DNA from: a virus
IMG/VR virus record: IMGVR_UViG_3300024503_000015
Coordinates: 206,182 to 270,181 of that record
Length of the DNA stretch: 64,000 nucleotides
Reading direction: 5' to 3' (one strand)
The notes below the pieces were generated by a model. The model saw only the letters and a program-made list of their open reading frames with translations, made no database searches and was not told the origin of the DNA. Shown piece by piece: positions 29,867 to 52,463 of the stretch (its first letter is position 1; each line of letters begins with the position of its first letter). The position numbers were made by a program, and so were the translations under genes.

Positions 29867-30325
29867 TCAAGTTCTCCAGATTTCCTTAAAGCCTTCGTCT
29901 TCGGTTGGCATTTCAAAAGTATCAATCATGCTACGCATAACTGAATCTGGAATGTTCTTGCCTGGACGACTGGCTAAACGTCGATCCAATTCTTCCTTTT
30001 TAGGAGTTGGAAATACCACAGCAATATGTTCATAGTTAGGCAACATATTGAACTTACGCTTACGGCTCTTAATCGAAACACTGGTCTGATCCCAGATGAT
30101 ATCTAAATTATTTGCCTTACAAATTTCGACTTGGTTAGCCATCAACTTTACGGCAATAGGCATATATTCATCAAAAACTTCGTTGTAGGTTTTACCCATT
30201 TTTTCAGCGTATTCTTCCACAAACTTATCTGTGCTAACCACAGGAATATCCTTAGCCCAGTCTTGATTCTTAATCCAAGTGCTCTTACCTGCACCTGGCA
30301 CTCCGATTAATTGATAACACTTCAT
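29867..30325 (-). CDS. pseT: polynucleotide 5'-kinase (T4 Pnk kinase domain only)
   Basis: LIGVPGAGKSTW P-loop, DIIWDQTSVSIKSRKR and IPDSVMRSMIDTFEMP align with the T4 Pnkp kinase domain. No HAD phosphatase domain is present. Confidence 0.8.
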   Translation of the reverse strand: MKCYQLIGVPGAGKSTWIKNQDWAKDIPVVSTDKFVEEYAEKMGKTYNEVFDEYMPIAVKLMANQVEICKANNLDIIWDQTSVSIKSRKRKFNMLPNYEHIAVVFPTPKKEELDRRLASRPGKNIPDSVMRSMIDTFEMPTEDEGFKEIWRT

Positions 30326-30582
30326 GGTTGAAAGTTGTCCCTTCCTTTTGTATGCTTACTGATTTCGGCTAAGGTTGCCCTTAGCATTTGAATTTCCATT
30401 GCGGCTTCTTCTAACAAGTTAGCAATCTTGTCGGGCTTACCTTCTGTGACTGCTAACCTGCCAGGAATCTGCCTACGTATCTCTGCTCGTTTATACAAGC
30501 GGAACACTAGGCTTTGCTCTGCTACAGGCAAATGACTTTCATCTTCACATCTCATACTGTCTCCATATAGTTGCGTACCCAA
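30322..30582 (-). CDS. hypothetical protein
   Basis: 86 aa ORF between the kinase and ligase genes. Confidence 0.4.
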   Translation of the reverse strand: MGTQLYGDSMRCEDESHLPVAEQSLVFRLYKRAEIRRQIPGRLAVTEGKPDKIANLLEEAAMEIQMLRATLAEISKHTKGRDNFQP

Positions 30583-31436
30583 GATAAACGAGCTTGCTCG
30601 TCCATAGCAGTATACTCCTCAATGTTAGCACGGATAGCATCCACTAGTGGATAGTATTCTTCGTCTAAATTGTGCTTGATGTCTTTGTTCAAGTCTACTA
30701 ACTTGTCTGTGCGTGGATTGCGAGCAACCCACTTTGAAGTCAAGTAGTAAGGTGACTTGATCTTAGAACCAACGCCGTCCTTAGTATAGAATACAAAACC
30801 TTCGTGCTTAACAGTCTTTACTAGAGCCTTTAACTCGCCTACTGTAGTAGTAAAGATATCCACAGGGAGGCATCCAAGATGCTTGCCCAAAGGTTCTAGC
30901 GTAAACTTTTCGTAGTATAACTTACCGTTCCAGTCTTTGTGACGGAATCCGATAAAGTACAGTCCAGGTTCTTCAGGTATGATGTGTGGGTCAGTTGGAT
31001 GAACGCACTCAAACATAAAAGTAAAATCTGGGGCACATCTTAGTACATCACGGAAGTTATCAGTGATATATTCCTTTGCCATATCGACAAACTCGCCTGA
31101 AGTAGAACCTGTTGTTGAAACTAGGATATCTCCATTGTGCCAAGTCATAGCAACCATAAAGCCGTTAACTTTACGAAGTGCTGTGATCTCAGTATCGTCG
31201 GATAGCACTGGTGCTTCCTTTTCAATACCATAGTTATAGATCTTTGTGAATGGTCGTTGTACTACATTAAACTCAGAGTCTACAATAGTACCTCGACATT
31301 CGGCGATGTATTCGTTCCACAAGTTATCGTAGAACACTTTCTTCTTGTACTTTAGCACATAGATACCATCGCCACATTCTTTCATGTTGACTAGGTTACT
31401 AGTGTTTACATACTCCTTCAATTCATCTTTAAACAT
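30552..31436 (-). CDS. rnlA: RNA ligase, T4 Rnl1 (RnlA) family
   Basis: Start trimmed to MFKDEL. ECRGTIV, LRKVNGFMV (KxNG motif I) and FMFECVHPTD parallel T4 Rnl1 ECRGIMF / TKEDGS / FEFVAPTN. Confidence 0.8.
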   Translation of the reverse strand: MFKDELKEYVNTSNLVNMKECGDGIYVLKYKKKVFYDNLWNEYIAECRGTIVDSEFNVVQRPFTKIYNYGIEKEAPVLSDDTEITALRKVNGFMVAMTWHNGDILVSTTGSTSGEFVDMAKEYITDNFRDVLRCAPDFTFMFECVHPTDPHIIPEEPGLYFIGFRHKDWNGKLYYEKFTLEPLGKHLGCLPVDIFTTTVGELKALVKTVKHEGFVFYTKDGVGSKIKSPYYLTSKWVARNPRTDKLVDLNKDIKHNLDEEYYPLVDAIRANIEEYTAMDEQARLSWVRNYMETV

Positions 31437-31977
31437 GATGACCCTTAATTTCGTTGTTTTTAATTCTGCCAATCGCATATTCCATTGACACAACAATCTC
31501 ACCGGTTGAATCCATACCTACATCGAATGCACGATACTTTTCTAATCCACTAACACCTCCGTGTAAGTGACCATGAAAATGTAATGCTCCTCTGTGCATT
31601 TGATCCCACTCAGCAATCGGATAGTGAAACATGACAATCTTGTGACCATCATATGTAATATCCAAATACTCGTGTACTTCTGCAAACGCACCACGGAACG
31701 TTTCGTCCATCAATGTCTTACGGTCATGATTTCCTCTAATTAAAATCTTTGTGCCATTCAAACGCTTTACCATTCTACCAGCATCACTACCTGACATGAA
31801 CGCTACATCGCCTAAGATGTAGACTGTGTCTTCAGGTTTGACTTTATGGTTCCATTCTTCGGCCATGGCGTTGTTCATATATGCAACGTCGTCTTTAAAT
31901 CGTGCTCTCGTCACTGGACAGAACTTCATGATGTTCTTATGTCCAAAGTGTAAGTCGCTTGTAATCCATGTTTTCAT
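31429..31977 (-). CDS. calcineurin-like metallophosphoesterase (candidate RNA 2',3'-end healing phosphatase)
   Basis: Start trimmed to MKTWITSDLHFGH. GDVAF, GNHD and GHLHGG motifs. Overlaps the rnlA start by 8 nt. Confidence 0.7.
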   Translation of the reverse strand: MKTWITSDLHFGHKNIMKFCPVTRARFKDDVAYMNNAMAEEWNHKVKPEDTVYILGDVAFMSGSDAGRMVKRLNGTKILIRGNHDRKTLMDETFRGAFAEVHEYLDITYDGHKIVMFHYPIAEWDQMHRGALHFHGHLHGGVSGLEKYRAFDVGMDSTGEIVVSMEYAIGRIKNNEIKGHHV

Positions 31978-32057
31978 TTTTTCGCTCTTCTTTCTTGTTA
32001 TATTATACAGCCAAAAGAACGCCCTGTCAACTCTCGAAGACAGGGCAAATGTTGTTT

Positions 32058-32525
32058 TTATACAACGGGCTTGTATGTGCGCCAATCGTCGATGTTGGGC
32101 TTTTCGTCCGCATCGTAGGTCCAACCCAAGGCTCGCATCATTCTGTGCTTAACGAGCAGATTAGGGCTTCTAAACCGCCCTGTATCCTGAAAGCCCAGCA
32201 TTACGCCTACTTCGCATACAGCACCGCTACGACAAATTCCAGCAAAACAATGAACAACAACGTTCATTTTGTTATCCAAAGCGTGTTGTAAAAGAGCCAC
32301 AAGTTGATTGGCTTGTTCTTGACTACACTTCATTGCTTCGTCGTCTACGTGGTCGTTTTCCTCCACGTCCAAAAATTCAAAGTTATGAATTTCCTTGAAC
32401 TTATGGGCAGGAGTAGGACGCCAGCTCGCCGGGTCAACGATACTAATCAGCATACTATTTTCGCCTGCTTCGTGATGAAATCTTTTTGGGATATCATCGG
32501 CGGCTACATTTTCAATCCAAGGCAT
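32058..32525 (-). CDS. Cys-based protein-tyrosine / dual-specificity phosphatase
   Basis: HCFAGICRSG CX5R P-loop. Confidence 0.7.
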   Translation of the reverse strand: MPWIENVAADDIPKRFHHEAGENSMLISIVDPASWRPTPAHKFKEIHNFEFLDVEENDHVDDEAMKCSQEQANQLVALLQHALDNKMNVVVHCFAGICRSGAVCEVGVMLGFQDTGRFRSPNLLVKHRMMRALGWTYDADEKPNIDDWRTYKPVV

Positions 32526-32534
32526 AATGCCTCC

Positions 32535-32903
32535 TTATTTTTTCATTGCTTCCATCATTCCGAAAAGTTCAGCCCATTGTTCACTAGGCTTTTGACCTTC
32601 GTTAAGATTCATAATAGCAAGAAAATCCTTGTAGTTTTCTGGAACCTTGAAATAGATGTTAGCATAAGTGCAGTCAAATGAGTCGTCCTCATCATGACTG
32701 TACCAAGGATGTTCTGACATTTCATCAAAAACATCTTCGTAGTCTTCACGGTTACCACCACCATTACGTGTATGAACAACAATGTAACCTTCATCCATAT
32801 AGACATTACGGAAACGACCAAAGTCGCTTGCAGTTTTGCCTAGAATTTCAAGTAACTTTCCGCTATCGGGATTCATGCCAAATATCATGTTGTACATTGA
32901 CAT
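32535..32903 (-). CDS. hypothetical protein
   Basis: 122 aa ORF. Confidence 0.45.
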   Translation of the reverse strand: MSMYNMIFGMNPDSGKLLEILGKTASDFGRFRNVYMDEGYIVVHTRNGGGNREDYEDVFDEMSEHPWYSHDEDDSFDCTYANIYFKVPENYKDFLAIMNLNEGQKPSEQWAELFGMMEAMKK

Positions 32904-32905
32904 AA

Positions 32906-33277
32906 TTACTCCTTTACAAAATCAACTCTTTCACTGTAATAGCCATTCGATTGACCTAGCCAACGAATGTCCACATAACCCTTGCGAGTTGCAAACTTGT
33001 AGAAAGTCCATGTGTAAGACTCGTATGCTTCGAAGTCGGCTGGGCTTTCGCCATCAACTTCTTCTGCTATTAGAATCTCTGAACCTACTAAGTCCTGCAA
33101 ATCGCCGACTATGCTTTCTATGCTTACGCTTTCGCAACAGTCTTGCTCGTGATACATACGATAGCGTTCGCCATCTGTGGTTTCAAAAACGATCTCGTCG
33201 CCACTCTCGTTGATGTTGGACAAAGTCTTGCCCTTCAACACATCAACGTTACAATATTCTCTGTCCCAATATCCCAT
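32906..33277 (-). CDS. hypothetical protein
   Basis: 123 aa ORF. Confidence 0.45.
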   Translation of the reverse strand: MGYWDREYCNVDVLKGKTLSNINESGDEIVFETTDGERYRMYHEQDCCESVSIESIVGDLQDLVGSEILIAEEVDGESPADFEAYESYTWTFYKFATRKGYVDIRWLGQSNGYYSERVDFVKE

Positions 33278-33541: not shown

Positions 33542-33616
33542 TGGTCCCGCTACTACGAATCGAACGTAGACTTACTCTTTAGGAGAGAGTCGTTCTATCC
33601 ATTGAACTATAGCGAG
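33542..33616 (-). tRNA. tRNA-Arg (anticodon CCT)
   Basis: Hand-folded cloverleaf. Acceptor CTCGCTA/TAGCGGG, T-arm CTACG-TTCGATT-CGTAG, anticodon loop CTCCTAA, encoded CCA. Confidence 0.6.
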
Positions 33617-33626
33617 GGAGGGAATT

Positions 33627-33734
33627 TGGTGTGACCGGGAGGGTTCGAACCTCCAAGGACGGCATATCGCCTAGTCCCGACCCACGGAGTGTTTCACAAC
33701 AGTCCTGGAGCTCTGCCTATTCGCTCACGGTCAC
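33627..33734 (-). tRNA. atypical 108 nt tRNA-like gene with ~50 nt structured insert in the anticodon/variable region
   Basis: Perfect acceptor GTGACCG/CGGTCAC, D-arm, T-arm GGAGG-TTCGAAC-CCTCC and CCA. Middle has AGGAC...GTCCT enclosing GNRA-capped hairpins. No canonical anticodon loop. Confidence 0.35.
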
Positions 33735-33765
33735 ATACTAAGTATATAACCTTTTCAGCAGTTTG

Positions 33766-34221
33766 TCAACGGGTTATGAGGTATTCGTAGTTCACTGTGT
33801 TGTCGTTTTCTTGCAACACACAGGCACCATTTCTGATATGGAACTTGTAGGCCATTTCAGTTTTTGGGCTAAGTGTTACAAAACGATTAACAGTTGGGAA
33901 AAGTTCTTTTATTTGATCCACTACACCAAAAAGTAGCTCTGCGGCCGCACCCGGCGCATAACTCCAAATTGTATAGAAGATTGCTGTAGTTGGTTCTGTG
34001 GGTGTTTTAGCCAAATCTTCAACAGTTGTTGGCACAAAATCGTGCAGACTAACACAGACCATTGCACGTGGTTTTTCGCCTTCTACAGTGGTGGCGACAA
34101 ATCTGCTACCGCTAACACGAAATTCTTTGGGAATTTCTGGACGTACTGGATCATCCTTGATATAGTCAAGTAATGGATTAGTAGTTTCTCTGATTAATGT
34201 TAGCATATAACTATTTAGCAT
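33766..34221 (-). CDS. hypothetical protein embedded in tRNA array
   Basis: 151 aa ORF between tRNA genes. Confidence 0.45.
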   Translation of the reverse strand: MLNSYMLTLIRETTNPLLDYIKDDPVRPEIPKEFRVSGSRFVATTVEGEKPRAMVCVSLHDFVPTTVEDLAKTPTEPTTAIFYTIWSYAPGAAAELLFGVVDQIKELFPTVNRFVTLSPKTEMAYKFHIRNGACVLQENDNTVNYEYLITR

Positions 34222-34244
34222 TTAGTGGGCAGATTATGGTGTTA

Positions 34245-34319
34245 TGGTGGTAACGGTGAGATTCGAACTCACACCTTGCTCCGTATGAAGGAGGTGCACG
34301 ACCATTATGCTACGTTACC
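34245..34319 (-). tRNA. tRNA-Met (anticodon CAT; Met or lysidine-Ile not distinguishable)
   Basis: Acceptor GGTAACG/CGTTACC, T-arm GTGAG-TTCGAAT-CTCAC, anticodon loop TTCATAC, CCA. Confidence 0.6.
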
Positions 34320-34858
34320 AGATTATTAGTAAGATGTCCCGAGAGTTTTGGTTTGGGTAAGGCCATCCGACGGTGCGATTCGTCCCTCTCTTTGTCTAGC
34401 CCAACATGAAGTTCTTGTAGTCTCAATCCGCTCACCTTGCACCGGCGCTTGATACATATACTCTACAGCATTAAAGTTTATAACTTCAATTAACAAAAAC
34501 TTCCGATCTTTGTTAACTCCTTGCGGATGCTTTTAGAACCTTAACTACTTACTAATAAAAGGGGTGGAGAGAGAAAGGCAAGTAATAGACTGGACAATGT
34601 ACAAGCGGGCTCTATAAAGATACCCTTAACAAGTCACAAGGCGCAAAGCACAGGGACCTGTATATTTCCAGTTAGCAACTCACAAAGTCGATTAATATAT
34701 AGAACTGGTTCACACAAGCACGAAACGTTTTCAAGACGTTTTGCCAGTAGTTGATGTTCGGTCTCTATAAGAGATCAAACCTTAGGCATGTAGCCTAAGT
34801 CTGTCTATCCTAATCTCCTTCTCTACTCCAGGCTCGGGCTTTCGCCTTTGCCAAAACT

Positions 34859-34932
34859 TGGTTGCGGGACCTGGAATCGAACCAGGATCTAGAGCTTATG
34901 AGACTCTTGAGTTACCGTTTCTCTATCCCGCG
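34859..34932 (-). tRNA. tRNA-Met (anticodon CAT) with C1-A72 mismatch, initiator-like
   Basis: Acceptor CGCGGGA/TCCCGCA with an unpaired 1-72, anticodon stem-loop AGAGT-CTCATAA-GCTCT, T-arm CCTGG-TTCGATT-CCAGG, CCA. Confidence 0.55.
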
Positions 34933-35269
34933 ATAACTTTATAGGTGCTCTCTGTTCGACTCGAACGAAACCTGCTGAGCTCCTTATCTTCCTGGCACTT
35001 TCGGTGGGTAGTCGACTTAGCACCTAACTCGTGTTATCCAGTGTAGTTCAGCTCAGAGAGCATTTATAAAGTGTCTAGCCACTCCCACCACAGGAGCCCT
35101 AAACCGAGCTGTTACTCTGTCCACTAGCCTTTCCATTTAGACGGTGCTGAGGTCCGCCTTTGTGATTTCTCAAGTCGCTTTAAACAAGCCTTGCGGTAGA
35201 TCCAATGCACCGAGCCATTAAGGTGTAGCAATTACCTAACTCTATCACGCTGAGTTAACGCGGGGTCTG

Positions 35270-35842
35270 TTACAGTAAACCTTCTGCTTGCAGAACTGCT
35301 TCTGTTTTGTCAGACAATTGGATAGTTGTCTGAACATTTAACTCTAGGATTTCATCCTGAAGTTTTTGTTTCTGCTTTTTAGCAGTTGCCACTCTACGAC
35401 GGAATCCGTCTAGATCTTCACGAGTGAGCACACTAGTGTCTACTGTGTCGTTGTAGCCATAGATGCTACGACGGTTTTCGCTTTTGTCGTTACGGATCTT
35501 GTCCAAACGACCTGCTACAACCTTTGCGCTTTCGCGAACGGTCTTACTAGCCAATCCGTTGTAGAATTGGATTTGTTTTTCTAGATGTGCAACATCGGCC
35601 AATCTAGTGTCGATTCTAACTTCTGTGTTAGCACCGCTGACACTTTTACGAATCTCGTAAAGTGCTTCCACTAACGCATCTCTGCGTGTAAGGTTGTCGC
35701 AGAGTGTTCCTGCAACTTTGGAAATTTCTTGTTCCGCTTCTTGGAACTCGTTGATTTTTACTGTGGTCTCAAACTGGAAACCTTTGACGGTATCGTTGAT
35801 ACTGTTCTGAAGTGCATTTGCCTTACGTAGGGAGATATTCAT
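35270..35842 (-). CDS. hypothetical coiled-coil protein
   Basis: Trimmed to ATG 35842 so it does not overlap tRNA-Gly. Confidence 0.45.
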   Translation of the reverse strand: MNISLRKANALQNSINDTVKGFQFETTVKINEFQEAEQEISKVAGTLCDNLTRRDALVEALYEIRKSVSGANTEVRIDTRLADVAHLEKQIQFYNGLASKTVRESAKVVAGRLDKIRNDKSENRRSIYGYNDTVDTSVLTREDLDGFRRRVATAKKQKQKLQDEILELNVQTTIQLSDKTEAVLQAEGLL

Positions 35843-35908
35843 TTGTTTTTCCTTTAATGTTTCTATTATACAATCTTTTAAATCTAAATCAATGCCTTTT
35901 GGCAAAAC

Positions 35909-35984
35909 TGGAGCGGGAGACGAGGTTCGAACTCGCGACATTTACCTTGGCAAGGTAATGCTCTACCAACTGAGCTACTCCCGC
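35909..35984 (-). tRNA. tRNA-Gly (GCC)
   Basis: GCGGGAG/CTCCCGC, D-arm GCTCAGTTGGTAGAGC, anticodon TTACC-TTGCCAA-GGTAA, CCA. Confidence 0.7.
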
Positions 35985-36032
35985 ATATGAAGAACCTAAG
36001 GCAAAGTTTATAACTTATCCAAAGGCCATATA

Positions 36033-36108
36033 TGGTACACGGTACGGGAATCGAACCCGTCTTACTGACGTGAAAGGCCAGTGTCCTAAACCGATAGACG
36101 AACCGTGC
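36033..36108 (-). tRNA. tRNA-Glu (TTC)
   Basis: Acceptor GCACGGT/ACCGTGT, anticodon loop CTTTCAC, T-arm ACGGG-TTCGATT-CCCGT, CCA. Confidence 0.65.
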
Positions 36109-36114
36109 ATTACT

Positions 36115-36190
36115 TGGCTCCCCAGGGTGGGATCGAACCACCGACACCCTGATTAACAGTCAGGTGCTACTACCGCTGAGCTACTAGGGA
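36115..36190 (-). tRNA. tRNA-Asn (GTT)
   Basis: TCCCTAG/CTGGGGA, anticodon loop CTGTTAA, T-arm GGTGG-TTCGATC-CCACC, CCA. Confidence 0.7.
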
Positions 36191-36197
36191 ATAAACT

Positions 36198-36272
36198 TGG
36201 TACCTGGTGACAGTTTCGAACTGCCGACCCTCTCGGTGTAAACGAGACGCTCTACCACTGAGCTAACCAGGC
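36198..36272 (-). tRNA. tRNA-Val (TAC)
   Basis: GCCTGGT/ACCAGGT, anticodon loop TTTACAC, CCA. Confidence 0.7.
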
Positions 36273-36282
36273 AAACTAACAT

Positions 36283-36359
<77 letters not shown>

Positions 36360-36364
36360 AATGA

Positions 36365-36440
36365 TGGAGCGGGAGGCGAGAGTTGAACTCGTCTATTTCA
36401 GTTTGGAAGACTGACGTGTAACCACAAACACTTCACCCGC
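36365..36440 (-). tRNA. tRNA-Gly (TCC)
   Basis: GCGGGTG/CTCCCGC (one mismatch), anticodon TCAGT-CTTCCAA-ACTGA, CCA. Confidence 0.6.
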
Positions 36441-36446
36441 ATATTT

Positions 36447-36530
36447 TGGTGCCCCAGGAGAGACTCGAACTCTCACGGCTCTCGCCACTGGCTTCTAAGA
36501 CCAGCGTGTCTACCATTCCACCACCAGGGC
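36447..36530 (-). tRNA. tRNA-Leu (TAG), type II
   Basis: Anticodon loop CTTAGAA, 13 nt variable arm, T-arm GAGAG-TTCGAGT-CTCTC, CCA. Confidence 0.65.
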
Positions 36531-36531
36531 A

Positions 36532-37335
36532 TTAACTGACAATACTATTTAAGTATTCCTGAATTGTCGTTGCAATTTTTTCTTGCACAGACAATTTAAT
36601 TTTTGCATTCTCACCATTAGCACTCATATACTGTTTTCCGTATTCAGTACAATCTATACCAGTGTGCATAAACTCTTTAAAAATTTCTGAGTTGTCAGGA
36701 TTAGGATCTCCAAACCTAACAGTCGTCCATTTAATATTTTGAGAATCTAAAAACTTAATTAACATATTGTAACCATTTCTATGTCTACGAATATGCCAAT
36801 CTTTGCTTTGACTTTTTTGAAAAGCAATACCGTTTAATCGCTTTTTATGAACTTCAATTGGATATCTATCTGGATTCCATTCTCCGTCTACATAATTTTC
36901 ACGTTCAAATACATATCGTTGATTGTTATATTTGAAACTGTGTGCTATATGACTAAACGTGTAATCTGTAACTAATACATGATCCGGTTTAGGATTCTCT
37001 GCTAGGTACTGTTTTAATCTTTTGTGATGACCTATAAAATGTCCACCGTTAATAGATATATTAACTACATTGGAAACATTTAAGAAATTAGGCCATGCGG
37101 CTTTTTGTTCTTCTTCCCATAGATAATGCCAAACAACATTTTCCATATTGCCATTGGGCATAGGTGTTGTAACATTGTTTTCTTTTCTATGTTTTAGATA
37201 CCATTTAAAAACACTTCTAAAATCATTATGGAAACGTAGACTCCAAGTCCTCGGAGCATCGTCGTTGACTATGTCACCAGCCAAACAATTATTGCCATTA
37301 CTTTGGCAATCTCCTAAAATTAAAAGTGTTTTCAT
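36532..37335 (-). CDS. hypothetical protein embedded in tRNA array
   Basis: 267 aa ORF. LLILGDCQSNG N-terminus, possibly SGNH-like. Confidence 0.5.
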   Translation of the reverse strand: MKTLLILGDCQSNGNNCLAGDIVNDDAPRTWSLRFHNDFRSVFKWYLKHRKENNVTTPMPNGNMENVVWHYLWEEEQKAAWPNFLNVSNVVNISINGGHFIGHHKRLKQYLAENPKPDHVLVTDYTFSHIAHSFKYNNQRYVFERENYVDGEWNPDRYPIEVHKKRLNGIAFQKSQSKDWHIRRHRNGYNMLIKFLDSQNIKWTTVRFGDPNPDNSEIFKEFMHTGIDCTEYGKQYMSANGENAKIKLSVQEKIATTIQEYLNSIVS

Positions 37336-37349
37336 ATTAATAGTTATCT

Positions 37350-37426
37350 TGGCGCACCGTAGGGGACTTGAACCCCTGGCCTCCGACGTGACAGGCCGGC
37401 GCTCTGACCAACTGAGCTAACGGTGC
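37350..37426 (-). tRNA. tRNA-Asp (GTC)
   Basis: GCACCGT/ACGGTGC, anticodon CCGGC-CTGTCAC-GTCGG, T-arm AGGGG-TTCAAGT-CCCCT, CCA. Confidence 0.7.
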
Positions 37427-37564
37427 AAATTCTATTCTGAAACACACTAACCAACTACCAGAAGCATTTATAATGCCGTTATTCGGTTCGAGCTAATGTG
37501 TTTTAGAATAGTGCTAACGCTGAGATTATACGTTAGCCAATAGTGCCTCTAGCATTATAGTCAG

Positions 37565-37798
37565 CCTTGCGAGCCAACCTTCTCTAGACATCCACATAAG
37601 CCATTACTGTACCTATGTCCACTATCAGCATCGCCGTTTTTAAAGACAGGCAGTAGTCTTGTCGCCATATGCTATTCTACGCTATCTACTCCGTTGACCT
37701 TGCGAGCCATTCAGCGGCGCTAACCACTTACGAAACTTCCAGCATAAACAGATTTCACCTTGCGAGCTACGTCTGACTCGATTACCTTGCGGCTCGAG
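37565..37798. repeat. four dispersed copies of CCTTGCGAGC(C) motif in an ORF-free spacer
   Basis: Copies at 37565, 37698, 37758 and 37785. Related CCTTGCGG copies at 34521, 35180 and 38183. Confidence 0.5.
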
Positions 37799-37844
37799 TA
37801 TTAGATGCTTTTCACATATGACCGAGGCAGTCTTTGCATTTTAT

Positions 37845-37916
37845 AATCGATAGTTGGGATCGAACCAACAGTCCATTGCTTAAGAGGCAATTGCGTTACC
37901 ATTACGCTATATCAAA
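37845..37916 (-). tRNA. tRNA-Lys (CTT)
   Basis: Anticodon ATTGC-CTCTTAA-GCAAT, T-arm GTTGG-TTCGATC-CCAAC. No encoded CCA. First acceptor pair weak. Confidence 0.55.
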
Positions 37917-38566
37917 CCTACCGCGATGAGCTGCCTCTGTTGCTCAATAACCTTTTGGATTACTGAATACAACTCACCACATACCTTTTGTCTCGCGGAC
38001 TACTCAGTGATATTTCACGATCAATGTCCTGCATCAAAACAGTCCACTAACCATTAATATTGCATACAAGCCCTTAGGAGCGACCCCTTGGACAAATACA
38101 CTACCCTTTCTCATACCAATTCGCAAGTTGGTTTTGTTAGGAAGTCAGCACCACCCGTTACTTTTCATGCACCCTGGTTCCCTTGCGGGCCAGTCGATAC
38201 ACATTCTTTCCCTAACACTTGCTTCATTGTTACATCCACCGGTCTTCTCAGTGAACGCTACCTCGCGGTAGTGAGCAGGCTTGTTTACATGAACCATTAC
38301 TGGCGGAGTTGCGTAGGCTTACCTCCTTTGGGTTGATCACTCAACTTATTCTTCGTCAACGGCGAACCGCCAACAGGATAATAAACTACCCTTAAATTTT
38401 TACCATTAAAAAATAACATTACACCCTATGGGATGAAACGTATTTCTGAGTGGAGTTCGATTCTCCTCATAAGCCATTGTTCACGGTTTTCTCAGAAGGG
38501 TAAGATGGCCTTATCCTTCATAAGTCTATGCGTCCATAGACGATACCCGTCAATGCTATTTCTTAA

Positions 38567-38652
38567 TGGTGGATGCGGCTGGAGTCGAACCAGCAGTGCC
38601 GTAAGGCGGCGGATTTACAGTCCACTGGGGTTACCAATTTTCCTACACATCC
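38567..38652 (-). tRNA. tRNA-Tyr (GTA), type II
   Basis: GGATGTG/CGCATCC, anticodon GTGGA-CTGTAAA-TCCGC, long variable arm, CCA. Confidence 0.6.
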
Positions 38653-38739
38653 ATATCTGCTTGAAATTTTTAAAGAACTAGGTTAATTTCTTAACTAGTC
38701 TCTATTGTATATGAACTTTAGAAACTAGTCAAGACATTT

Positions 38740-38834
38740 TGGCAGTGAGTAAGGGATTCGAACCCTTGATCCCCGTTTTTGCAGGAATGCCTTCTTAGCA
38801 GGAAGGTGCCTTCGACCAGCTCGGCCAACTCACT
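38740..38834 (-). tRNA. tRNA-Ser (GCT), type II
   Basis: AGTGAGT/ACTCACT, anticodon CCTTC-CTGCTAA-GAAGG, long variable arm, CCA. Confidence 0.65.
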
Positions 38835-38878
38835 ATATTTGTATTATACGATCAACTGTTAAACAAGTCAACACCTTT

Positions 38879-38968
38879 TGGCCGAAGCGGTGAGATTCGA
38901 ACTCACGGACCCTTTCGGATCGTCTGTTTTCAAGACAGGTGCAATAAACCGGACTCTGCCACGCTTCG
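38879..38968 (-). tRNA. tRNA-Ser (TGA), type II
   Basis: CGAAGCG/CGCTTCG, anticodon CCTGT-CTTGAAA-ACAGA, long variable arm, CCA. Confidence 0.65.
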
Positions 38969-39014
38969 TTGTTTTACTTGTATAATTCGTTGTAGATAGA
39001 ATCTGCTACAAATG

Positions 39015-39092
39015 TGGTACCCCTGCTCCGATTCGAACGGAGAGAACTTCTCCTTTTGAGAGAGACGACTTTACCAATTTGTCCACAGGGGT
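39015..39092 (-). tRNA. tRNA with anticodon CAA (Leu-decoding) but short type-I variable loop
   Basis: ACCCCTG/CAGGGGT, anticodon TCTCT-CTCAAAA-GGAGA, 6 nt variable loop, CCA. Identity uncertain. Confidence 0.45.
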
Positions 39093-39097
39093 ATATC

Positions 39098-39171
39098 TGG
39101 TGCTCAAGGAAAGAATCGAACTTTCGATTGTGTCGTACCAAGACACTGGTATACCATTTACCTACAAGAGC
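39098..39171 (-). tRNA. tRNA-Thr (GGT)
   Basis: Anticodon GTGTC-TTGGTAC-GACAC. Acceptor stem has two U-U mismatches. CCA. Confidence 0.5.
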
Positions 39172-39173
39172 CT

Positions 39174-39245
39174 TGGCGCCTCTGAGTAGATTCGAACTAC
39201 TATAACCTGGTTTAGAAGACCTGGCACTGCTCCATCAGCAGAGGC
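39174..39245 (-). tRNA. tRNA-Arg (TCT)
   Basis: GCCTCTG/CAGAGGC, anticodon loop CTTCTAA with one A-A mismatch in the stem, CCA. Confidence 0.5.
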
Positions 39246-39246
39246 A

Positions 39247-39323
39247 TGGTACCCTTGGTTGGATTCGAACCTACACACAACGGATTTTAAATCCATTCGC
39301 ATTACCAATTAGCGTACAAGGGC
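39247..39323 (-). tRNA. tRNA with anticodon TAA (Leu-decoding) but type-I architecture
   Basis: GCCCTTG/CAAGGGT, anticodon ATGGA-TTTAAAA-TCCGT, 5 nt variable loop, CCA. Confidence 0.45.
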
Positions 39324-39330
39324 ATAATTA

Positions 39331-39406
39331 TGGTGCCGCCCCTTGGGATCGAACCAAGTTCCTCGGTGCTTCAAACCGGTGCAATGACCACATTTGCTAA
39401 AGCGGC
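39331..39406 (-). tRNA. tRNA-Phe (GAA)
   Basis: GCCGCTT/GGGCGGC (G-U pairs), anticodon loop TTGAAGC, T-arm CTTGG-TTCGATC-CCAAG, CCA. Confidence 0.6.
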
Positions 39407-39412
39407 GATATT

Positions 39413-39487
39413 TGGGGTGAAGCCGGGAATCGAACCCTGCCTTACTGTTTCACAGACAGCCGTGCGGACCACTACACTAGCAACACC
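39413..39487 (-). tRNA. tRNA-His (GTG) with extra 5' G-1
   Basis: G-1:C73 pair, anticodon GCTGT-CTGTGAA-ACAGT. Acceptor has two U-U mismatches. Confidence 0.6.
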
Positions 39488-39489
39488 AT

Positions 39490-39566
39490 TGGCCGGCCCT
39501 GAGAGACTCGAACTCCCAACCTCCAGTTTCGAAGACTGGCACTCTAATCCATTGAGTTAAGGACCG
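39490..39566 (-). tRNA. tRNA-Arg (TCG)
   Basis: CGGTCCT/AGGGCCG, anticodon CCAGT-CTTCGAA-ACTGG, CCA. Confidence 0.6.
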
Positions 39567-39573
39567 TTAAAAT

Positions 39574-39647
39574 TGGCAGGCCTACCAGGACTCGAACCTG
39601 GAACGACTGAGTCAAAGTCAGTTGTGTTACCATTACACCATAGGCCA
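39574..39647 (-). tRNA. tRNA-Gln (TTG)
   Basis: Anticodon ACTGA-CTTTGAC-TCAGT, T-arm CCAGG-TTCGAGT-CCTGG, weak 1-72 pair, CCA. Confidence 0.6.
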
Positions 39648-39873
39648 ACAGATTGAATTTGTAAGTAGTTGCCCCATCGTTATAGCAACCATTCACCCAT
39701 GTATATAAAGCCGGCTGGGACTCGGTACGTCACTTGGGATACTAGTCCAGTTAGCAACCAATCTGCAGGGATCTTCCGATCCCCCGGGAGTTGAACCCGT
39801 CCCCTTTTACTATTAAGGTAGTTCGAACTTACCTACAATAGCGTGACATTCTCTTGCTGACACTTACAAAACT

Positions 39874-39946
39874 TGGTGCCCCAGGATGGAATCGAACCAC
39901 CACACCCTGCTTACAAAACAGGACCTCTACCACTAAGGATACAAGG
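39874..39946 (-). tRNA. tRNA-Thr (TGT)
   Basis: GCCCTTG/CTGGGGC, anticodon CCTGT-TTTGTAA-GCAGG, CCA. Confidence 0.6.
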
Positions 39947-39953
39947 GCAAAAT

Positions 39954-40031
39954 TGGTCTCCACGGTACGATTCGAACGTACAGCCTCCTGACTCCAGATC
40001 AGGCCGTCTACCAGATTGACATTACGCAGAG
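39954..40031 (-). tRNA. tRNA of uncertain identity (loop TCTGGAG, C at position 33)
   Basis: Good acceptor CTCTGCG/CGTGGAG and T-arm GTACG-TTCGAAT-CGTAC with CCA. Anticodon loop is non-canonical. Confidence 0.35.
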
Positions 40032-40041
40032 ATAAAAATAA

Positions 40042-40117
40042 TTGCGACCGAAGGACTCGAACCTTCGCGGTAATCTAGAATGCCCCGGCAAGGCCGGTTA
40101 ACCCACCATTGTCGCAA
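40042..40117 (-). tRNA. tRNA-like element whose anticodon arm is replaced by a 5 bp/3 nt hairpin
   Basis: Perfect acceptor TTGCGAC/GTCGCAA, D-arm and T-arm CGAAGG-TTCGAGT-CCTTCG. Middle CCGGC-CTT-GCCGG hairpin. No CCA. Confidence 0.35.
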
Positions 40118-40120
40118 ATT

Positions 40121-40195
40121 TGGTGGAGGCCGAGGAAATCGAATCCTTCTAGACATCTTCCTTGCAAGGGAAGACCGTAGCCCACTACTGCCCCC
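40121..40195 (-). tRNA. tRNA-Ala-like (TGC) with truncated D-arm and degenerate T-arm
   Basis: Anticodon CTTCC-CTTGCAA-GGAAG, T-loop TTCGATT with a stem mismatch, D region only 12 nt, CCA. Confidence 0.35.
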
Positions 40196-40280
40196 AAATT
40201 GGTGTTAGTTTCTATACCACCCATTGAAACTAACAAACATTGAGAGAACATGGATGAACCCACAAGATCTCTATTTGCTC

Positions 40281-40355
40281 TGGTATAGCGTACGGGGATC
40301 GAACCCGCCTAGTCACCTTGAAAGGGTGATGACCTCCCCAGAAGTCGAACGCTAT
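40281..40355 (-). tRNA. tRNA-Glu (TTC), second copy
   Basis: ATAGCGT/ACGCTAT, anticodon TCACC-CTTTCAA-GGTGA, CCA. Confidence 0.55.
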
Positions 40356-40361
40356 GTAAAT

Positions 40362-40435
40362 TGGTTCCTGGACCGAGAATTGAACTCAGAATGACCGGTT
40401 ATCAGCCGATTGTTATACCATTTAACTATCCAGGA
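40362..40435 (-). tRNA. tRNA-Ile (GAT)
   Basis: TCCTGGA/TCCAGGA, anticodon ATCGG-CTGATAA-CCGGT, CCA. Confidence 0.65.
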
Positions 40436-40617
40436 ATAATACTATACAAAAAGAAACTAACGACAATGCGCTATGCACCCAGAGTCTATAGTTCCTGGCT
40501 GTGGTTAGTTTGTTTTTATACACTACCATATGGAAGCACTCTTATGCCTTTTTCGTCATAAGATGGTGGCCCGTCCTTACTACTGACGCTATGCGACCAG
40601 TTAAGAATGCTTTCATA

Positions 40618-40692
40618 TGGTAGGGGCACAGAGAATCGAACTCTGATTTACGGGTTAAAAGCCCGCTACTTTAACCATTAAGTTATACCCCC
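40618..40692 (-). tRNA. tRNA-Lys (TTT)
   Basis: GGGGGTA/TGCCCCT, anticodon GCGGG-CTTTTAA-CCCGT, CCA. Confidence 0.65.
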
Positions 40693-40695
40693 ATA

Positions 40696-40771
40696 TGGTC
40701 CCTGCTGTGAGATTCGAACTCACACCTCATTGATTAAGAGTCAAGTGCGCTACCATTGACGCTAAACAGGG
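40696..40771 (-). tRNA. tRNA-Lys (CTT), second copy
   Basis: CCCTGTT/AGCAGGG, anticodon loop CTCTTAA, T-arm GTGAG-TTCGAAT-CTCAC, CCA. Confidence 0.5.
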
Positions 40772-40942
40772 TTGTACGTATTGATTTGATTTTACGTGCC
40801 AACCCTAGACCATACGGGAGATCTAGAGTGACACTAACGTTTAGCACGTTTCATGCTACTCTCCTTTTAATATTTTTTCAAAACTTGATACAACACGAAC
40901 ATTATAACTAACACTACAAGTACTGCCATAATATTCTCCTTA

Positions 40943-41032
40943 TGGTCCCCCGTTGAGGAATCGAACCTCATCCTGGACCTTATCTAGATTAATCGGTTAT
41001 AAGCCGACCTGCTCTCCATGAGCTAACGGGGG
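40943..41032 (-). tRNA. type II (long variable arm) tRNA with anticodon TAT
   Basis: Perfect acceptor CCCCCGT/ACGGGGG, anticodon GTCGG-CTTATAA-CCGAT, ~21 nt variable arm, CCA. Confidence 0.45.
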
Positions 41033-41040
41033 ATATAACC

Positions 41041-41118
41041 TGGAGCAACGGGTCAGATTTGAACTGACGGTTTTACGGATTTGCAATCCGTTGCATTGGG
41101 CCTCTCTGCCACCGTTGC
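41041..41118 (-). tRNA. tRNA-Cys (GCA)
   Basis: GCAACGG/CCGTTGC, anticodon ACGGA-TTGCAAA-TCCGT, T-arm GTCAG-TTCAAAT-CTGAC, CCA. Confidence 0.65.
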
Positions 41119-41123
41119 ATTAT

Positions 41124-41198
41124 TGGCGTACCCCCAGGGACTCGAACCCCGACTAGCAGTTTTGGAGACTGTCGTGCTGCCATTAACACTAGGGATAC
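41124..41198 (-). tRNA. tRNA-Trp (CCA)
   Basis: GTATCCC/GGGGTAC, anticodon loop CTCCAAA, CCA. Confidence 0.65.
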
Positions 41199-46321: not shown

Positions 46322-46395
46322 TGGTGCGCTAGACAGGAATCGAACCTGCTATCGGGAGTTTAGAAGTCCCTGCCTATCCATTGAGCTTCAAGCGC
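46322..46395 (-). tRNA. isolated tRNA, best fold gives anticodon CTA (amber-suppressor-like); alternative register TCT
   Basis: Acceptor GCGCTTG/CTAGCGC, T-arm GCAGG-TTCGATT-CCTGT, CCA. Anticodon stem GGGA/TCCC with loop TTCTAAA. Confidence 0.4.
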
Positions 46396-52027: not shown

Positions 52028-52104
52028 GTGATCTTTCTATGAAATAAAACTGCGATACTGTGTATTATAGGCTCGGACAGGGCATCTGTCAATGTGTTTG
52101 GTAA

Positions 52105-52135
52105 AATAAAAAAGGGCCCGAAGGCCCTTTGGTTG
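52105..52135 (-). terminator. rho-independent terminator (second copy of GGGCCCGAAGGCCC hairpin)
   Basis: Hairpin followed by TTTTTTATTTT on the minus strand. Confidence 0.55.
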
Positions 52136-52395
52136 TTTGGGTTACAAGGTAAGTCCTACCCCGGAGTTGCAGTTTCTTAGGCTGCTACTAGACCATTGTC
52201 GGCTGTGAAGCCTTCAACAGTGAAGTACTCAAATGTAGATGCGTTTGCATTTACTAGTTTTGCTTGATTTACGGTCATCGCCTACCGTGTTGCCGTCTCT
52301 ACTATCTACCCCTGTCGAAACCATGGCAGGCCCATCATAAAAACACAATACCAAAGTAAATTTACAATGAATACCAAAGTAAATTTATGTCCTTA

Positions 52396-52435
52396 TGGTG
52401 GACCTGGCGGGAGTCGAACCCGCGTCCAGAAGTCC
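52396..52435 (-). other. tRNA 3'-half-like minihelix (T-arm + acceptor + CCA) lacking D and anticodon arms
   Basis: GCGGG-TTCGACT-CCCGC T-arm, then CAGGTCC-A-CCA, with a complementary GGACTTC only 5 nt upstream. Confidence 0.3.
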
Positions 52436-52463
52436 TTCGCTTTGAAGGGATTACAACAATTCT

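Follow-up and report, generated by a model that had tools for sequence, protein, structure and literature searches.

Introduction

Large lytic phages such as the T5-like Demerecviridae and the jumbo phages (e.g., Xanthomonas phage XacN1) carry clusters of dozens of tRNA genes on one strand, with small open reading frames (ORFs) between them, as well as rIIA/rIIB and RNA-repair genes. Roles of phage tRNAs in counterdefense have been published (PMC10264068, PMC11555353). GOLLD RNAs that enclose a tRNA or pseudo-tRNA have been reported from tRNA arrays of phages and mycobacteria (PMC12286853, PMC6582537); one of them, GOLLD env-38, was resolved by cryo-electron microscopy as a 14-mer RNA nanocage, and Kretsch et al. 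suggested that GOLLD cages may hold tRNAs (PMC12286853). Here we analyzed a tRNA array in a stretch of viral DNA of 64,000 nucleotides (positions 206,182 to 270,181 of IMG/VR record IMGVR_UViG_3300024503_000015), which is referred to here as the window. The array (positions 33542 to 41198 of the window) consists of approximately 35 tRNA genes and tRNA-like elements, many of them noncanonical, together with a GOLLD RNA and other structured RNAs.

Phage tRNA islands and GOLLD RNAs are already known, and in a jumbo phage the array by itself is unremarkable. An initial annotation of the array had proposed rapid tRNA gene turnover and possible codon reassignment or specialized decoding. We consider it likely that the window is a fragment of a large (jumbo-type) lytic phage that uses the standard code and that the array is its translation-support island. 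The noncanonical tRNAs of the array are probably conserved, functional variants under this standard code.

Results

Composition of the array and its relatives

The cluster spans 7.7 kb, and all of its genes and elements lie on the minus strand. ARAGORN (default settings) detected 31 tRNA genes. The Rfam tRNA model (gathering score, 29 bits) recovered 30 of these at 36 to 71 bits, the exception being tRNA-Arg(UCU) at 39174 to 39245, and laxer filters added one gene at 39958 to 40030 (31.6 bits), giving 31 at or above 29 bits. Relaxed ARAGORN settings added a tRNA-Ala(UGC) (40121 to 40195), a second tRNA-Pro(UGG) (39954 to 40029), and a 108-nt tRNA-like element (33627 to 33734). The tally (i.e., 31 solid genes, two marginal genes [Ala-UGC and Arg-UCU], and two tRNA-like elements) comes to about 35, the number given in the initial annotation. 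CCA is encoded by all of the tRNAs save one, and, provided that the atypical Ala is counted, each of the 20 amino acids has a tRNA, in agreement with the earlier statement that most members encode CCA and that most amino acids are represented. The discriminators agree with bacterial identity rules (U73 in Gly and Cys; G73 in Ser, Asp, Asn, Gln, and Trp; C73 with G-1 in His; A73 in Leu).

Every atypical member that had been singled out scored above the Rfam threshold and kept its anticodon. These comprise two tRNAs(CAU), at 34245 to 34319 (62.6 bits) and 34859 to 34932 (60 bits), the latter with a C1xA72 mismatch; two class-I tRNAs with Leu anticodons and A73, namely, CAA (39015 to 39092; 78 nt; 54.8 bits) and UAA (39247 to 39323; 77 nt; 55.6 bits); a class-II tRNA(UAU) (40943 to 41032; 90 nt with a 21-nt variable region; 45.9 bits); and tRNA-Thr(GGU) (39098 to 39171; 57.4 bits) and tRNA-His(GUG) (39413 to 39487; 36.1 bits), the cloverleaves of which show tandem U:U pairs in the acceptor stem. 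Because none of these members fell below the threshold or received another anticodon, the description of the array stands. Two genes each for Glu(UUC) and Lys(CUU) were present, as annotated; one of the Lys(CUU) copies (37844 to 37917) is located inside the GOLLD RNA and is not free-standing. The annotation had overlooked GOLLD and the other conserved noncoding RNAs that fill the apparent gaps of the array.

In the anticodon set, most four-codon boxes are served by a single U34 tRNA, and further tRNAs serve the two-codon sets that end in A/U. Codon usage in the window leans to the A/U-ending codons that match U34 tRNAs, and the U34-rich set suits the phage's codon usage at 40% G+C, a value that holds throughout the window. 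Matches to PHROG and Pfam families identified phage genes in the window, including rIIA/rIIB, an Rnl1-type RNA ligase, an ATP-dependent DNA ligase, and other phage-family proteins. The nearest rIIB proteins (approximately 48% identity) were those of the jumbo phages PA5oct, XacN1, Xoo-sp13, and RsoM2USA. In DNA comparisons with cultured phages, single tRNAs were the only matches to the window, and no close DNA relative was found.

For comparative analyses, we collected 112 loci from IMG/VR viral contigs (up to 278 kb) via three proteins encoded in or beside the array. Gene order and content of the array vary between these related phage contigs. The closest syntenic relative, locus L083, has almost the same tRNA order as the window.

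Codon substitution and the genetic code

The window ORFs were compared with the related loci by tblastn, and the codons of the relatives that aligned to each window codon were tallied. ATA was replaced by Ile (34%), Val (24%), and Leu (21%) codons, a profile indistinguishable from those of ATT (36, 23, and 16%) and ATC (34, 23, and 22%). Leu codons replaced TTA at 61% and TTG at 66%, and the corresponding values for CTA, CTT, and CTG were 60 to 69%. Because these substitution profiles match those of ATT/ATC and CTN, AUA behaves as an Ile codon and UUA/UUG as Leu codons; reading of AUA as Leu, or of UUA/UUG as anything other than Leu, was thus ruled out at this level.

These profiles bear directly on the codon reassignment or specialized decoding that the initial annotation had considered, in which the class-II tRNA(UAU) would be charged by LeuRS or SerRS and the class-I CAA and UAA tRNAs by a synthetase other than LeuRS, with AUA, UUA, and UUG altered or ambiguous in meaning. 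There are precedents for such charging, i.e., a nematode class-II tRNA(UAU) that is leucylated in vitro (PMC3333845) and the allo-tRNAs, and the window tRNA(UAU) shares A73 and a long arm with Leu tRNAs. An amber-suppressor tRNA is encoded nearby, and TAG accounts for just 2 of 60 stop codons in the window. On the other hand, the substitution profiles are those of ordinary Ile and Leu codons, the window tRNA(UAU) carries what we take to be the Ile identity set of Escherichia coli (see below), its anticodon stem-loop resembles that of the neighboring tRNA-Ile(GAU), and it shows no particular similarity to the array's Leu tRNAs, while the class-I and class-II Leu tRNAs are clear orthologs of one another. 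With TAG read as sense, the largest window ORFs were unchanged and no real gene became longer, and TAG recoding was rejected. We therefore regard reassignment as highly improbable.

The amber-suppressor-type tRNA(CUA) (46322 to 46395, minus strand; ARAGORN; 38.4 bits in Rfam) has A73, CCA, and one U:U pair in the acceptor stem. It lies 5 kb upstream of the array, and no ORF in the window requires TAG read-through; late-gene recoding elsewhere in the genome and counterdefense are possible purposes.

Inherited irregularities of the tRNAs

We examined 1,455 unique CCA-ending tRNAs from the related loci. Acceptor stems were perfect in 89%, and U:U was the commonest mismatch. The U:U pairs were concentrated in tRNA-Gln (U1:U72 in 26 of 36), tRNA-His (10 of 30), and tRNA-Thr(GGU) (10 of 28), which indicates that they are inherited and isoacceptor specific rather than random damage. 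They are lineage-specific, tolerated features. In the window, such pairs occur in tRNA-Gln(UUG) (39574 to 39647; 64.6 bits), with U1:U72 and G73; in tRNA-His(GUG), with U4:U69 and U5:U68, an encoded G-1, C73, and a weak T-stem; in tRNA-Thr(GGU), with U5:U68 and U6:U67; in tRNA-Thr(UGU) (39874 to 39948; 51.9 bits), with U6:U67; and in tRNA-Gly(UCC) (36365 to 36440; 40.5 bits), with U73 and one acceptor U:U. The tRNA-His differs from its copy in locus L001 at one position over 74 nt. The tRNA-Thr(GGU) of locus L002 has an identical acceptor stem, including U5:U68 and U6:U67, while its anticodon stem has changed with compensation.

Similar patterns were observed for the marginal genes. The 72-nt tRNA-Arg(UCU), whose D-arm is reduced and whose anticodon stem contains an A:A mismatch, was found in this form in five relatives; the four positions that differ from the L001 copy make up two compensatory T-stem pairs. 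The atypical tRNA-Ala(UGC), which was detected by relaxed ARAGORN only and has no Rfam match, combines G3:U70 (acceptor GGGGGCA/GGCCUCC), A73, and CCA with a D-arm consisting of 4 bp and a tetraloop, and with a weak T-stem. Its L083 ortholog keeps G3:U70 and shows compensatory changes in the D-stem and anticodon stem. L083 also has a canonical tRNA-Ala between Asn and Glu; because this gene is missing here, the atypical tRNA-Ala is the only one in the window.

The tRNA(CAU) with C1xA72 (34859 to 34932) also has A11:U24 (D-stem GAG/CUC) and A73, and its L002 ortholog has identical features. In place of the three anticodon-stem G-C pairs of initiators (29-31:39-41), it has A29-U41, G30-C40, and U31:G39. 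It is of the initiator type, as judged from these sequence features. The other tRNA(CAU) (34245 to 34319) appears, by likeness, to be an elongator tRNA-Met rather than tRNA-Ile2, its acceptor GGUAACG resembling that of E. coli tRNA-Met. The two tRNA-Glu(UUC) genes (copy a, 36033 to 36108, 54.7 bits; copy b, 40281 to 40355, 44.5 bits) are only 68% identical to each other, and L001 and L103 likewise carry two, which points to an old duplication that has been maintained. Both copies have A73, while E. coli tRNA-Glu has G73.

Long variable arms were likewise found to be gained and lost. By textbook rules, a class-I Leu tRNA is unusual. The window tRNA-Leu(CAA) (A1-U72) and tRNA-Leu(UAA) (G1:U72) have variable loops of 4 nt and 4 to 5 nt, respectively, in place of the long arm of class II. 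The tRNA-Leu(UAG) of the window (36447 to 36530; 55.1 bits) is class II, with 84 nt and A73, while the L001 and L002 orthologs belong to class I, with 77 nt and the same sequence except for AUUUU in place of the arm. The L001 ortholog of tRNA-Leu(CAA) has an 11-nt unpaired variable region and is, by its sequence, an intermediate form. A near-identical ortholog of tRNA-Leu(UAA) is present in L014, and several relatives have 77-nt Leu-UAA genes. Among the related Leu-CAA genes, 25 of 37 are no longer than 81 nt. Overall, 51 of 158 unique Leu tRNAs in the related contigs are of this size, and they represent all five anticodons that were seen; A73 is present in all 51, in 157 of the 158, and in both class-I Leu tRNAs of the window. 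Bacterial LeuRS relies on A73 and on the tertiary core of the tRNA and does not require the anticodon arm to charge it (PMC2377443). Given this and the retention of A73, the short-arm UAA and CAA tRNAs would be Leu tRNAs that have lost the arm. Short-arm Leu tRNAs are common in phages and already present in databases: the class-I Leu-UAG of L001 matched 253 cultured-phage records, mostly T5-like phages of Salmonella, Escherichia, and Vibrio, and the record of Vibrio phage JSF10, which we checked directly, annotates a 74-nt tRNA-Leu-TAG.

Other class-II tRNAs with unexpected anticodons were observed in eight related loci (L091, L093, L094, L095, L096, L098, L100, and L104). They include an 86- to 87-nt CUU (Lys) tRNA with U73 and an anticodon stem matching that of Leu(UAA), an 89-nt Trp(CCA) tRNA, an 82-nt Cys tRNA, an 83-nt Thr(CGU) tRNA, and a 91-nt initiator-like CAU tRNA. 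In this phage group, variable arms seem to be gained and lost quite generally.

A different explanation of the atypical members is that they are functionless pseudogenes or degenerating duplicates in a fast-evolving array. Their covariance scores are poor in several cases (no Rfam match for Arg-UCU and Ala, 36 bits for His, and 31.6 bits for the second Pro), array content differs among relatives, and an element at approximately 40033 to 40112, which has an acceptor-like stem and a good T-arm in its sequence and fold, lacks both CCA and a 7-nt anticodon loop and had no homolog in the related loci by nhmmer. The second tRNA-Pro(UGG) is divergent, has C33, was recovered by Rfam under lax filters only, and takes the place of a canonical Pro-UGG in L083. 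Against decay, Arg-UCU, His, Ala, Thr-GGU, the class-I Leu tRNAs, and the class-II tRNA(UAU) are kept in relatives, and the U:U pairs, the 72-nt Arg-UCU form, the atypical Ala, and the long-arm UAU recur there alongside proteins that are just 50 to 75% identical, with neighboring stems compensated and anticodons unchanged. The atypical Ala, moreover, is the sole Ala tRNA here and has kept G3:U70. We judge decay to be quite unlikely as a general explanation. The rapid turnover proposed in the initial annotation is in part borne out, in that gene order and content differ among relatives, variable arms are gained and lost, and the canonical Ala of L083 is missing; the oddities themselves are not signs of decay, since they are conserved with compensation.

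Long-arm tRNA(UAU)

The tRNA(UAU) of the window has C1-G72, A73, a canonical 7/5 acceptor/T branch, CCA, and an anticodon loop with U33 and A37. Its 21-nt variable region forms a stem (AUC/GGU) that closes the loop UAGAUAA. An identical copy is present in L087, while no BLAST match was found in cultured phages. Among the relatives collected by protein anchors, and hence with no bias toward a tRNA motif, 20 of 22 tRNAs(UAU) were 90 to 94 nt long, and the two short ones were linker cloverleaves of GOLLD RNAs. The motif [C/U]AGAU[A/U]A was present in the extra region of all 11 distinct long UAU sequences in this set. A search with the pattern TTATA...AGATWA...GGTTCRANYCC identified at least 119 viral stretches; among the matches listed, 108 were predicted by ARAGORN as tRNA-Ile(UAU) of 88 to 96 nt, with 101 unique sequences. 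Because the pattern forced AGAUWA, conservation of the loop was judged from the protein-anchored set only.

The family as a whole comprised 188 unique sequences, with a covarying stem in the variable arm. The three loop-adjacent pairs were formed in 98 to 100% of 65 distinct arms, and each of them occurred as three to six pair types. In the gapless alignment of the arms, 91% of cells were paired, compared with 53% in shuffles; the covariation score was 0.869, compared with 0.166 for shuffled arms (none of 500 shuffles reached the observed score) and 0.10 to 0.20 for slid registers. The family loop reads C-AGAU-U/A-A, i.e., the stem closes a 7-nt YAGAUWA with GAU at loop positions 3 to 5. A73 was present in 138 of 141 family members, and the 1:72 pair was G:U in about half. 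The canonical 7/5 branch fits 140 of 141 members (a 49:65 pair is possible in 140 of 141 and an 8:65 pair in 51 of 141), and the window sequence permits both pairs. This geometry (7/5 rather than 8/4 or 9/3), together with A73 rather than G73 or U73, led us to reject membership of the window tRNA in the allo-tRNAs.

Outside the viral contigs, Levilactobacillus phage ENFP1 has an annotated 91-nt tRNA-Ile with the extra arm ACAGC-AGAUG-GCUGU, and Lactobacillus phage LpeD gave a partial match. Many bacterial genomes also contain the class, either as a lone chromosomal gene (in Xanthomonas, Pseudoxanthomonas, Microbulbifer, Marinobacter, Ruegeria, Sulfitobacter, and Allomesorhizobium) or within tRNA arrays (in Pyrinomonadaceae and other Acidobacteriota). 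A Sec-like D-arm, as described for allo-tRNAs, is seen in the acidobacterial forms, which probably correspond to the allo-tRNA-UAU group of Mukai et al. In that 2017 paper (PMC5389517), six allo-tRNA-UAU were inactive as Ser suppressors, their role in translation was doubted, and nontranslational roles were proposed. In the literature, we found no description of a long arm on a bacterial or phage tRNA-Ile(UAU), save for this probably overlapping allo-tRNA-UAU group; an earlier description of the arm, in work on Lactobacillus tRNA-Ile(UAU), is possible.

The cloverleaf of the window tRNA(UAU) carries A73, C4:G69, U12:A23, C29:G41, A37, and A38, which we take to be the Ile identity set of E. coli. 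Not all of these nucleotides are family-wide (e.g., L001 has G29:C41). ATA makes up 16% of Ile codons, the tRNA(UAU) is the sole AUA decoder, and no lysidine-type tRNA(CAU) was evident in the window. In view of these observations and of the Ile(GAU)-like anticodon stem-loop, TilS-independent reading of AUA as Ile is the most likely role; by its sequence, the tRNA would most likely be charged with Ile and read AUA without lysidine.

With low confidence, we propose that the extra loop, by displaying GAU, the anticodon of the major tRNA-Ile, stands in for that anticodon as an identity element recognized by IleRS or by some other Ile-specific factor. The proposal is prompted by the position of GAU at nucleotides 3 to 5 of a 7-nt loop, on a stem of about the length of an anticodon stem. 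Ile would then be charged via the extra loop and AUA read via UAU without lysidine, and identity would be separated from decoding in phages and in some bacteria, such as Xanthomonas, Microbulbifer, and Rhodobacterales. Long variable arms usually point away from the anticodon, which makes the geometry of such mimicry uncertain. We also considered kissing of the extra loop with the anticodon loop (AUAA/UUAU) and found it unsupported: most loops are CAGAUUA and a minority are CAGAUAA, and an association with nucleotide 32 looks phylogenetic.

GOLLD and other structured RNAs

The GOLLD RNA (approximately 900 nt in total) spans positions 37517 to 38430. Its conserved 3' domain (37517 to 37980) matched Rfam RF02032 at 207.2 bits (threshold, 150 bits) over model positions 1 to 416 of 416, and the contiguous 5' domain extends from 37981 to about 38430 (approximately 430 nt). 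By nhmmer, the 3' domain was found in 25 related loci and the contiguous 5' block was conserved in at least 14 of them. The window GOLLD is, on these matches, a new member of a known family. The cloverleaf with anticodon CUU (37844 to 37917; ARAGORN; 62.5 bits) lies in the unstructured linker of the model, has no CCA, and has a weak, A/U-rich acceptor stem. A homologous linker cloverleaf was present in 23 of the 25 relatives, with covarying stems and the anticodons CUU, GUU, UCU, UUU, UAU, and UAG. The apparent duplicate of tRNA-Lys(CUU) is explained by this cloverleaf; the free-standing gene (40696 to 40771; 57.7 bits) encodes CCA.

The larger noncoding gaps of the array are all conserved at the DNA level in relatives (nhmmer). 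One of them, RNA C (39648 to 39873; approximately 215 nt), lies between tRNA-Thr and tRNA-Gln and has a stem closing its 5' and 3' ends and T-arm-like hairpins; it was matched by nhmmer in at least 14 related loci, and RNAalifold identified compensatory changes in 30 of 50 pairs. RNAs A (34320 to 34858) and B (34933 to 35269) flank the initiator-like tRNA and consist of the modules A1 (approximately 34555 to 34840), A2 (approximately 34340 to 34550), B1 (approximately 35058 to 35240), and B2. In other phages, these modules are separate, often beside GOLLD and tRNA-Met; because their order differs between relatives, we consider them to be separate genes. RNAalifold supported compensatory changes in 24 of 42 pairs of A1 (11 sequences) and 15 of 40 pairs of B1 (nine sequences), the latter with long invariant blocks. 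Examples of the invariant blocks of A1 and B1 are GAGAUGAGGAUAGAC and GGAUCUACCGCAAGG.

The 108-nt element at 33627 to 33734, which follows a promoter-like site (33769 to 33741), is an anticodon-less mimic of a tRNA as judged from relaxed ARAGORN and its fold. It has a 7-bp acceptor stem, A73, CCA, a D-arm, a T-arm, and a long variable arm, with a long GUGA-capped stem instead of the anticodon arm. Orthologs were found in at least 12 loci; in these, the ends are conserved and the acceptor stem is compensated, while the tetraloop-capped hairpin in the middle varies in sequence and length. The mimic might be charged by an anticodon-independent synthetase (of the LeuRS/SerRS type) or act as a decoy. 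RNAs A, B, and C and the mimic had no match in Rfam 15 at an E value of ≤10, and RNAs A, B, and C had no BLAST match in cultured phages. YrlA (a Y RNA), ROOL, and other Rfam families were considered for the gaps and the mimic; none was found at this E value, and weak YrlA matches merely overlap tandem tRNAs.

Part of the set may serve outside translation, either by diverting host tRNA-targeting nucleases or synthetases (as decoys or sponges) or by associating with the GOLLD particle as its cargo or handles, the candidates being the linker cloverleaf, the mimic, and perhaps the class-II tRNA(UAU). For the first two, such a role would fit the evidence: the fold of the linker cloverleaf is kept while its anticodon drifts and CCA is absent, and the mimic keeps the acceptor stem, A73, CCA, T-arm, and long variable arm while variable tetraloop hairpins replace the anticodon loop. 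The suggestion of tRNAs inside GOLLD cages (PMC12286853) and the inactivity of allo-tRNA-UAU variants as suppressors (PMC5389517) point the same way. The free-standing tRNA(UAU), however, has a perfect anticodon loop (U33, A37) and CCA, and its position as the only decoder of a codon as frequent as ATA argues for translation. We hold nontranslational roles to be a minority possibility and rather unlikely.

Remaining genes of the array

The remaining genes are given here in the direction of transcription; unless noted otherwise, they were predicted by ARAGORN, and scores refer to the Rfam tRNA model. The array begins with tRNA-Trp(CCA) (41124 to 41198; 48 bits) and tRNA-Cys(GCA) (41041 to 41118; U73; 59.7 bits). 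Downstream of tRNA(UAU), reading of the sequence indicated two micro-ORFs with Shine-Dalgarno sequences between tRNAs (40832 to 40927), one encoding a hydrophobic peptide of 20 amino acids (MAVLVVLVIMFVLYQVLKKY) and the other a basic peptide of six (MKRAKR). After the free-standing tRNA-Lys(CUU) are tRNA-Lys(UUU) (40618 to 40692; 70.5 bits) and tRNA-Ile(GAU) (40362 to 40435; 61.7 bits). Farther on, tRNA-Arg(UCG) (39490 to 39566; 63 bits) follows tRNA-Gln, and tRNA-Phe(GAA) (39331 to 39406; 45.2 bits) lies between tRNA-His and tRNA-Leu(UAA). Two class-II Ser tRNAs with G73, UGA (38879 to 38968; 49.4 bits) and GCU (38740 to 38834; 54.4 bits), the latter preceded by a sigma70-like promoter (38871 to 38843), and the class-II tRNA-Tyr(GUA) (38567 to 38652; 47.3 bits), preceded by a promoter-like site (38732 to 38704), complete the part upstream of GOLLD.

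Downstream of GOLLD are tRNA-Asp(GUC) (37350 to 37426; 71 bits) and an ORF of 267 amino acids (36532 to 37335) with homologs of 48 to 56% identity in L001 and L002. Beyond tRNA-Leu(UAG) and tRNA-Gly(UCC) are tRNA-Pro(UGG) (36283 to 36359; C1-G72; 66.3 bits), tRNA-Val(UAC) (36198 to 36272; 64.2 bits), and tRNA-Asn(GUU) (36115 to 36190; 57.1 bits), and copy a of tRNA-Glu(UUC) is followed by tRNA-Gly(GCC) (35909 to 35984; 71 bits). An ORF of approximately 190 to 223 amino acids (35270 to 35842) has homologs in 32 viral loci and likely starts at ATG 35842, after a promoter-like site (35892 to 35865). Downstream of the elongator-type tRNA-Met is an ORF of 151 amino acids (33766 to 34221) with a weak match, in a family search, to the C-terminal domain of malonyl-CoA decarboxylase. 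No informative Pfam or PHROG match was found for the three ORFs in the array (36532 to 37335, 35270 to 35842, and 33766 to 34221). The array ends with tRNA-Arg(CCU) (33542 to 33616; 61.3 bits). Sigma70-like sites on the coding strand numbered 24 (expected, 14.4 ± 5.0), and the best ones precede tRNAs.

Neighboring genes

An RNA-repair cluster (29867 to 32525, minus strand; PHROG and Pfam) lies about 1 kb downstream of the array, past two small ORFs (32535 to 33277). It encodes a polynucleotide-kinase-like kinase/ATPase (29867 to 30325), an Rnl1-type RNA ligase (30552 to 31502), a phosphoesterase (31429 to 32124), and a dual-specificity phosphatase (32058 to 32525). Approximately 11 kb upstream of the array is a permuted (two-piece) transfer-messenger RNA (tmRNA) (52086 to 52549, minus strand; 52086 to 52488 by ARAGORN), which matched the Rfam models tmRNA_permuted (138 bits) and beta_tmRNA (129 bits). 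Its predicted tag, ANASTFEYFTVEGFTADNGLVAA, is unusually long, and a permuted tmRNA is also present in L002 (8222 to 8686). A protein of 683 amino acids encoded at 58827 to 60878 (minus strand) matched the Pfam CHASE2 (128 bits) and Guanylate_cyc (52 bits) domains of adenylate/guanylate cyclases; from these domains, it is a sensor-linked nucleotide cyclase, which is unusual in a phage.

Discussion

The properties of the array suggest how the island may work. Judging from consensus matches, several sigma70-like promoters would drive polycistronic precursors, which host RNase P and 3' processing would cut into approximately 33 CCA-bearing tRNAs. By analogy with other phages and from the genomic context, these tRNAs would likely sustain phage translation when host tRNAs run short or are depleted, or when tRNA-targeting defenses cleave them.

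Several points weigh against this reading of the array as a translation-support island under the standard code. The codon test draws on relatives whose tRNA types match those of the window, and it captures long-term protein evolution, at which scale low-level ambiguous decoding is still possible. At 49%, CGT is the most frequent of the Arg codons, and the window lacks an ACG tRNA to match it; the tRNA set is therefore not fully self-sufficient. The excess of promoter-like sites is modest. The second tRNA-Pro with C33, the element at 40033 to 40112 without CCA, and possibly the weak tRNA-Ala may be decaying copies. The functioning of the array tRNAs is argued from their conservation, and the fit to scarce host tRNAs or host nucleases from context and from published work on other phages. 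Taken with the substitution profiles and the conservation of the atypical tRNAs, these points leave a translation-support island on the standard code as the reading that we consider likely.

Odd phage tRNAs need not mean a new genetic code: short-arm Leu tRNAs, U:U acceptor pairs, and reduced D-arms are inherited and stable. Two of the atypical tRNAs, including the only Ala tRNA of the window, escape standard detectors. The island is also a compact source of new conserved structured RNAs beside GOLLD. For the class-II tRNA(UAU), the point of interest is how AUA could be read as Ile, and the tRNA still be recognized by IleRS, without lysidine, which can be tested by charging assays. A bolder view would be that the long-arm tRNA(UAU) is a widespread, undescribed solution to AUA decoding and that RNAs A, B, and C and the anticodon-less mimic are new classes of phage-island RNA; we put this forward tentatively and think it unlikely to hold in full.

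Comparison with known systems places the individual components as follows. The window tRNA(UAU) class shares with allo-tRNA(UAU) (PMC5389517) its occurrence in bacteria and phages, the long variable arm, and the UAU anticodon; it differs in that the D-arm of the window tRNA is ordinary, and the conserved YAGAUWA loop is not mentioned in the searched main text of that paper. The nematode nev-tRNA-Ile(UAU) (PMC3333845, PMC4300185) also combines a class-II body with a UAU anticodon. That tRNA, however, is eukaryotic, derived from tRNA-Leu, and leucylated, whereas AUA behaves as an Ile codon here and the tRNA is unlike the Leu tRNAs of the array. In the bacterial "Ile3" tRNA-Ile(UAU) of Mycoplasma mobile, Bifidobacterium, and lactic acid bacteria (PMC8450103), UAU likewise reads AUA without lysidine; the window class carries a covarying extra hairpin with an invariant AGAU.

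The RNA-repair cluster resembles the T4 Pnkp/Rnl1 tRNA repair system, which counters the anticodon nuclease PrrC, in having an Rnl1-type ligase, a kinase-like protein, and phosphoesterases, here beside tRNAs. It differs from the T4 system in that the putative kinase and phosphatase functions are on separate, weakly matching proteins. The window GOLLD shares with known members of RF02032 the conserved 3' domain, the more variable 5' domain, the location in a tRNA array, and the linker tRNA. The drifting anticodon of the linker is a point that we did not find stated in PMC12286853 or PMC6582537. Compared with the tRNA clusters of T5-like and jumbo phages, this array adds a GOLLD RNA, at least three other conserved noncoding RNAs, and an anticodon-less tRNA mimic.

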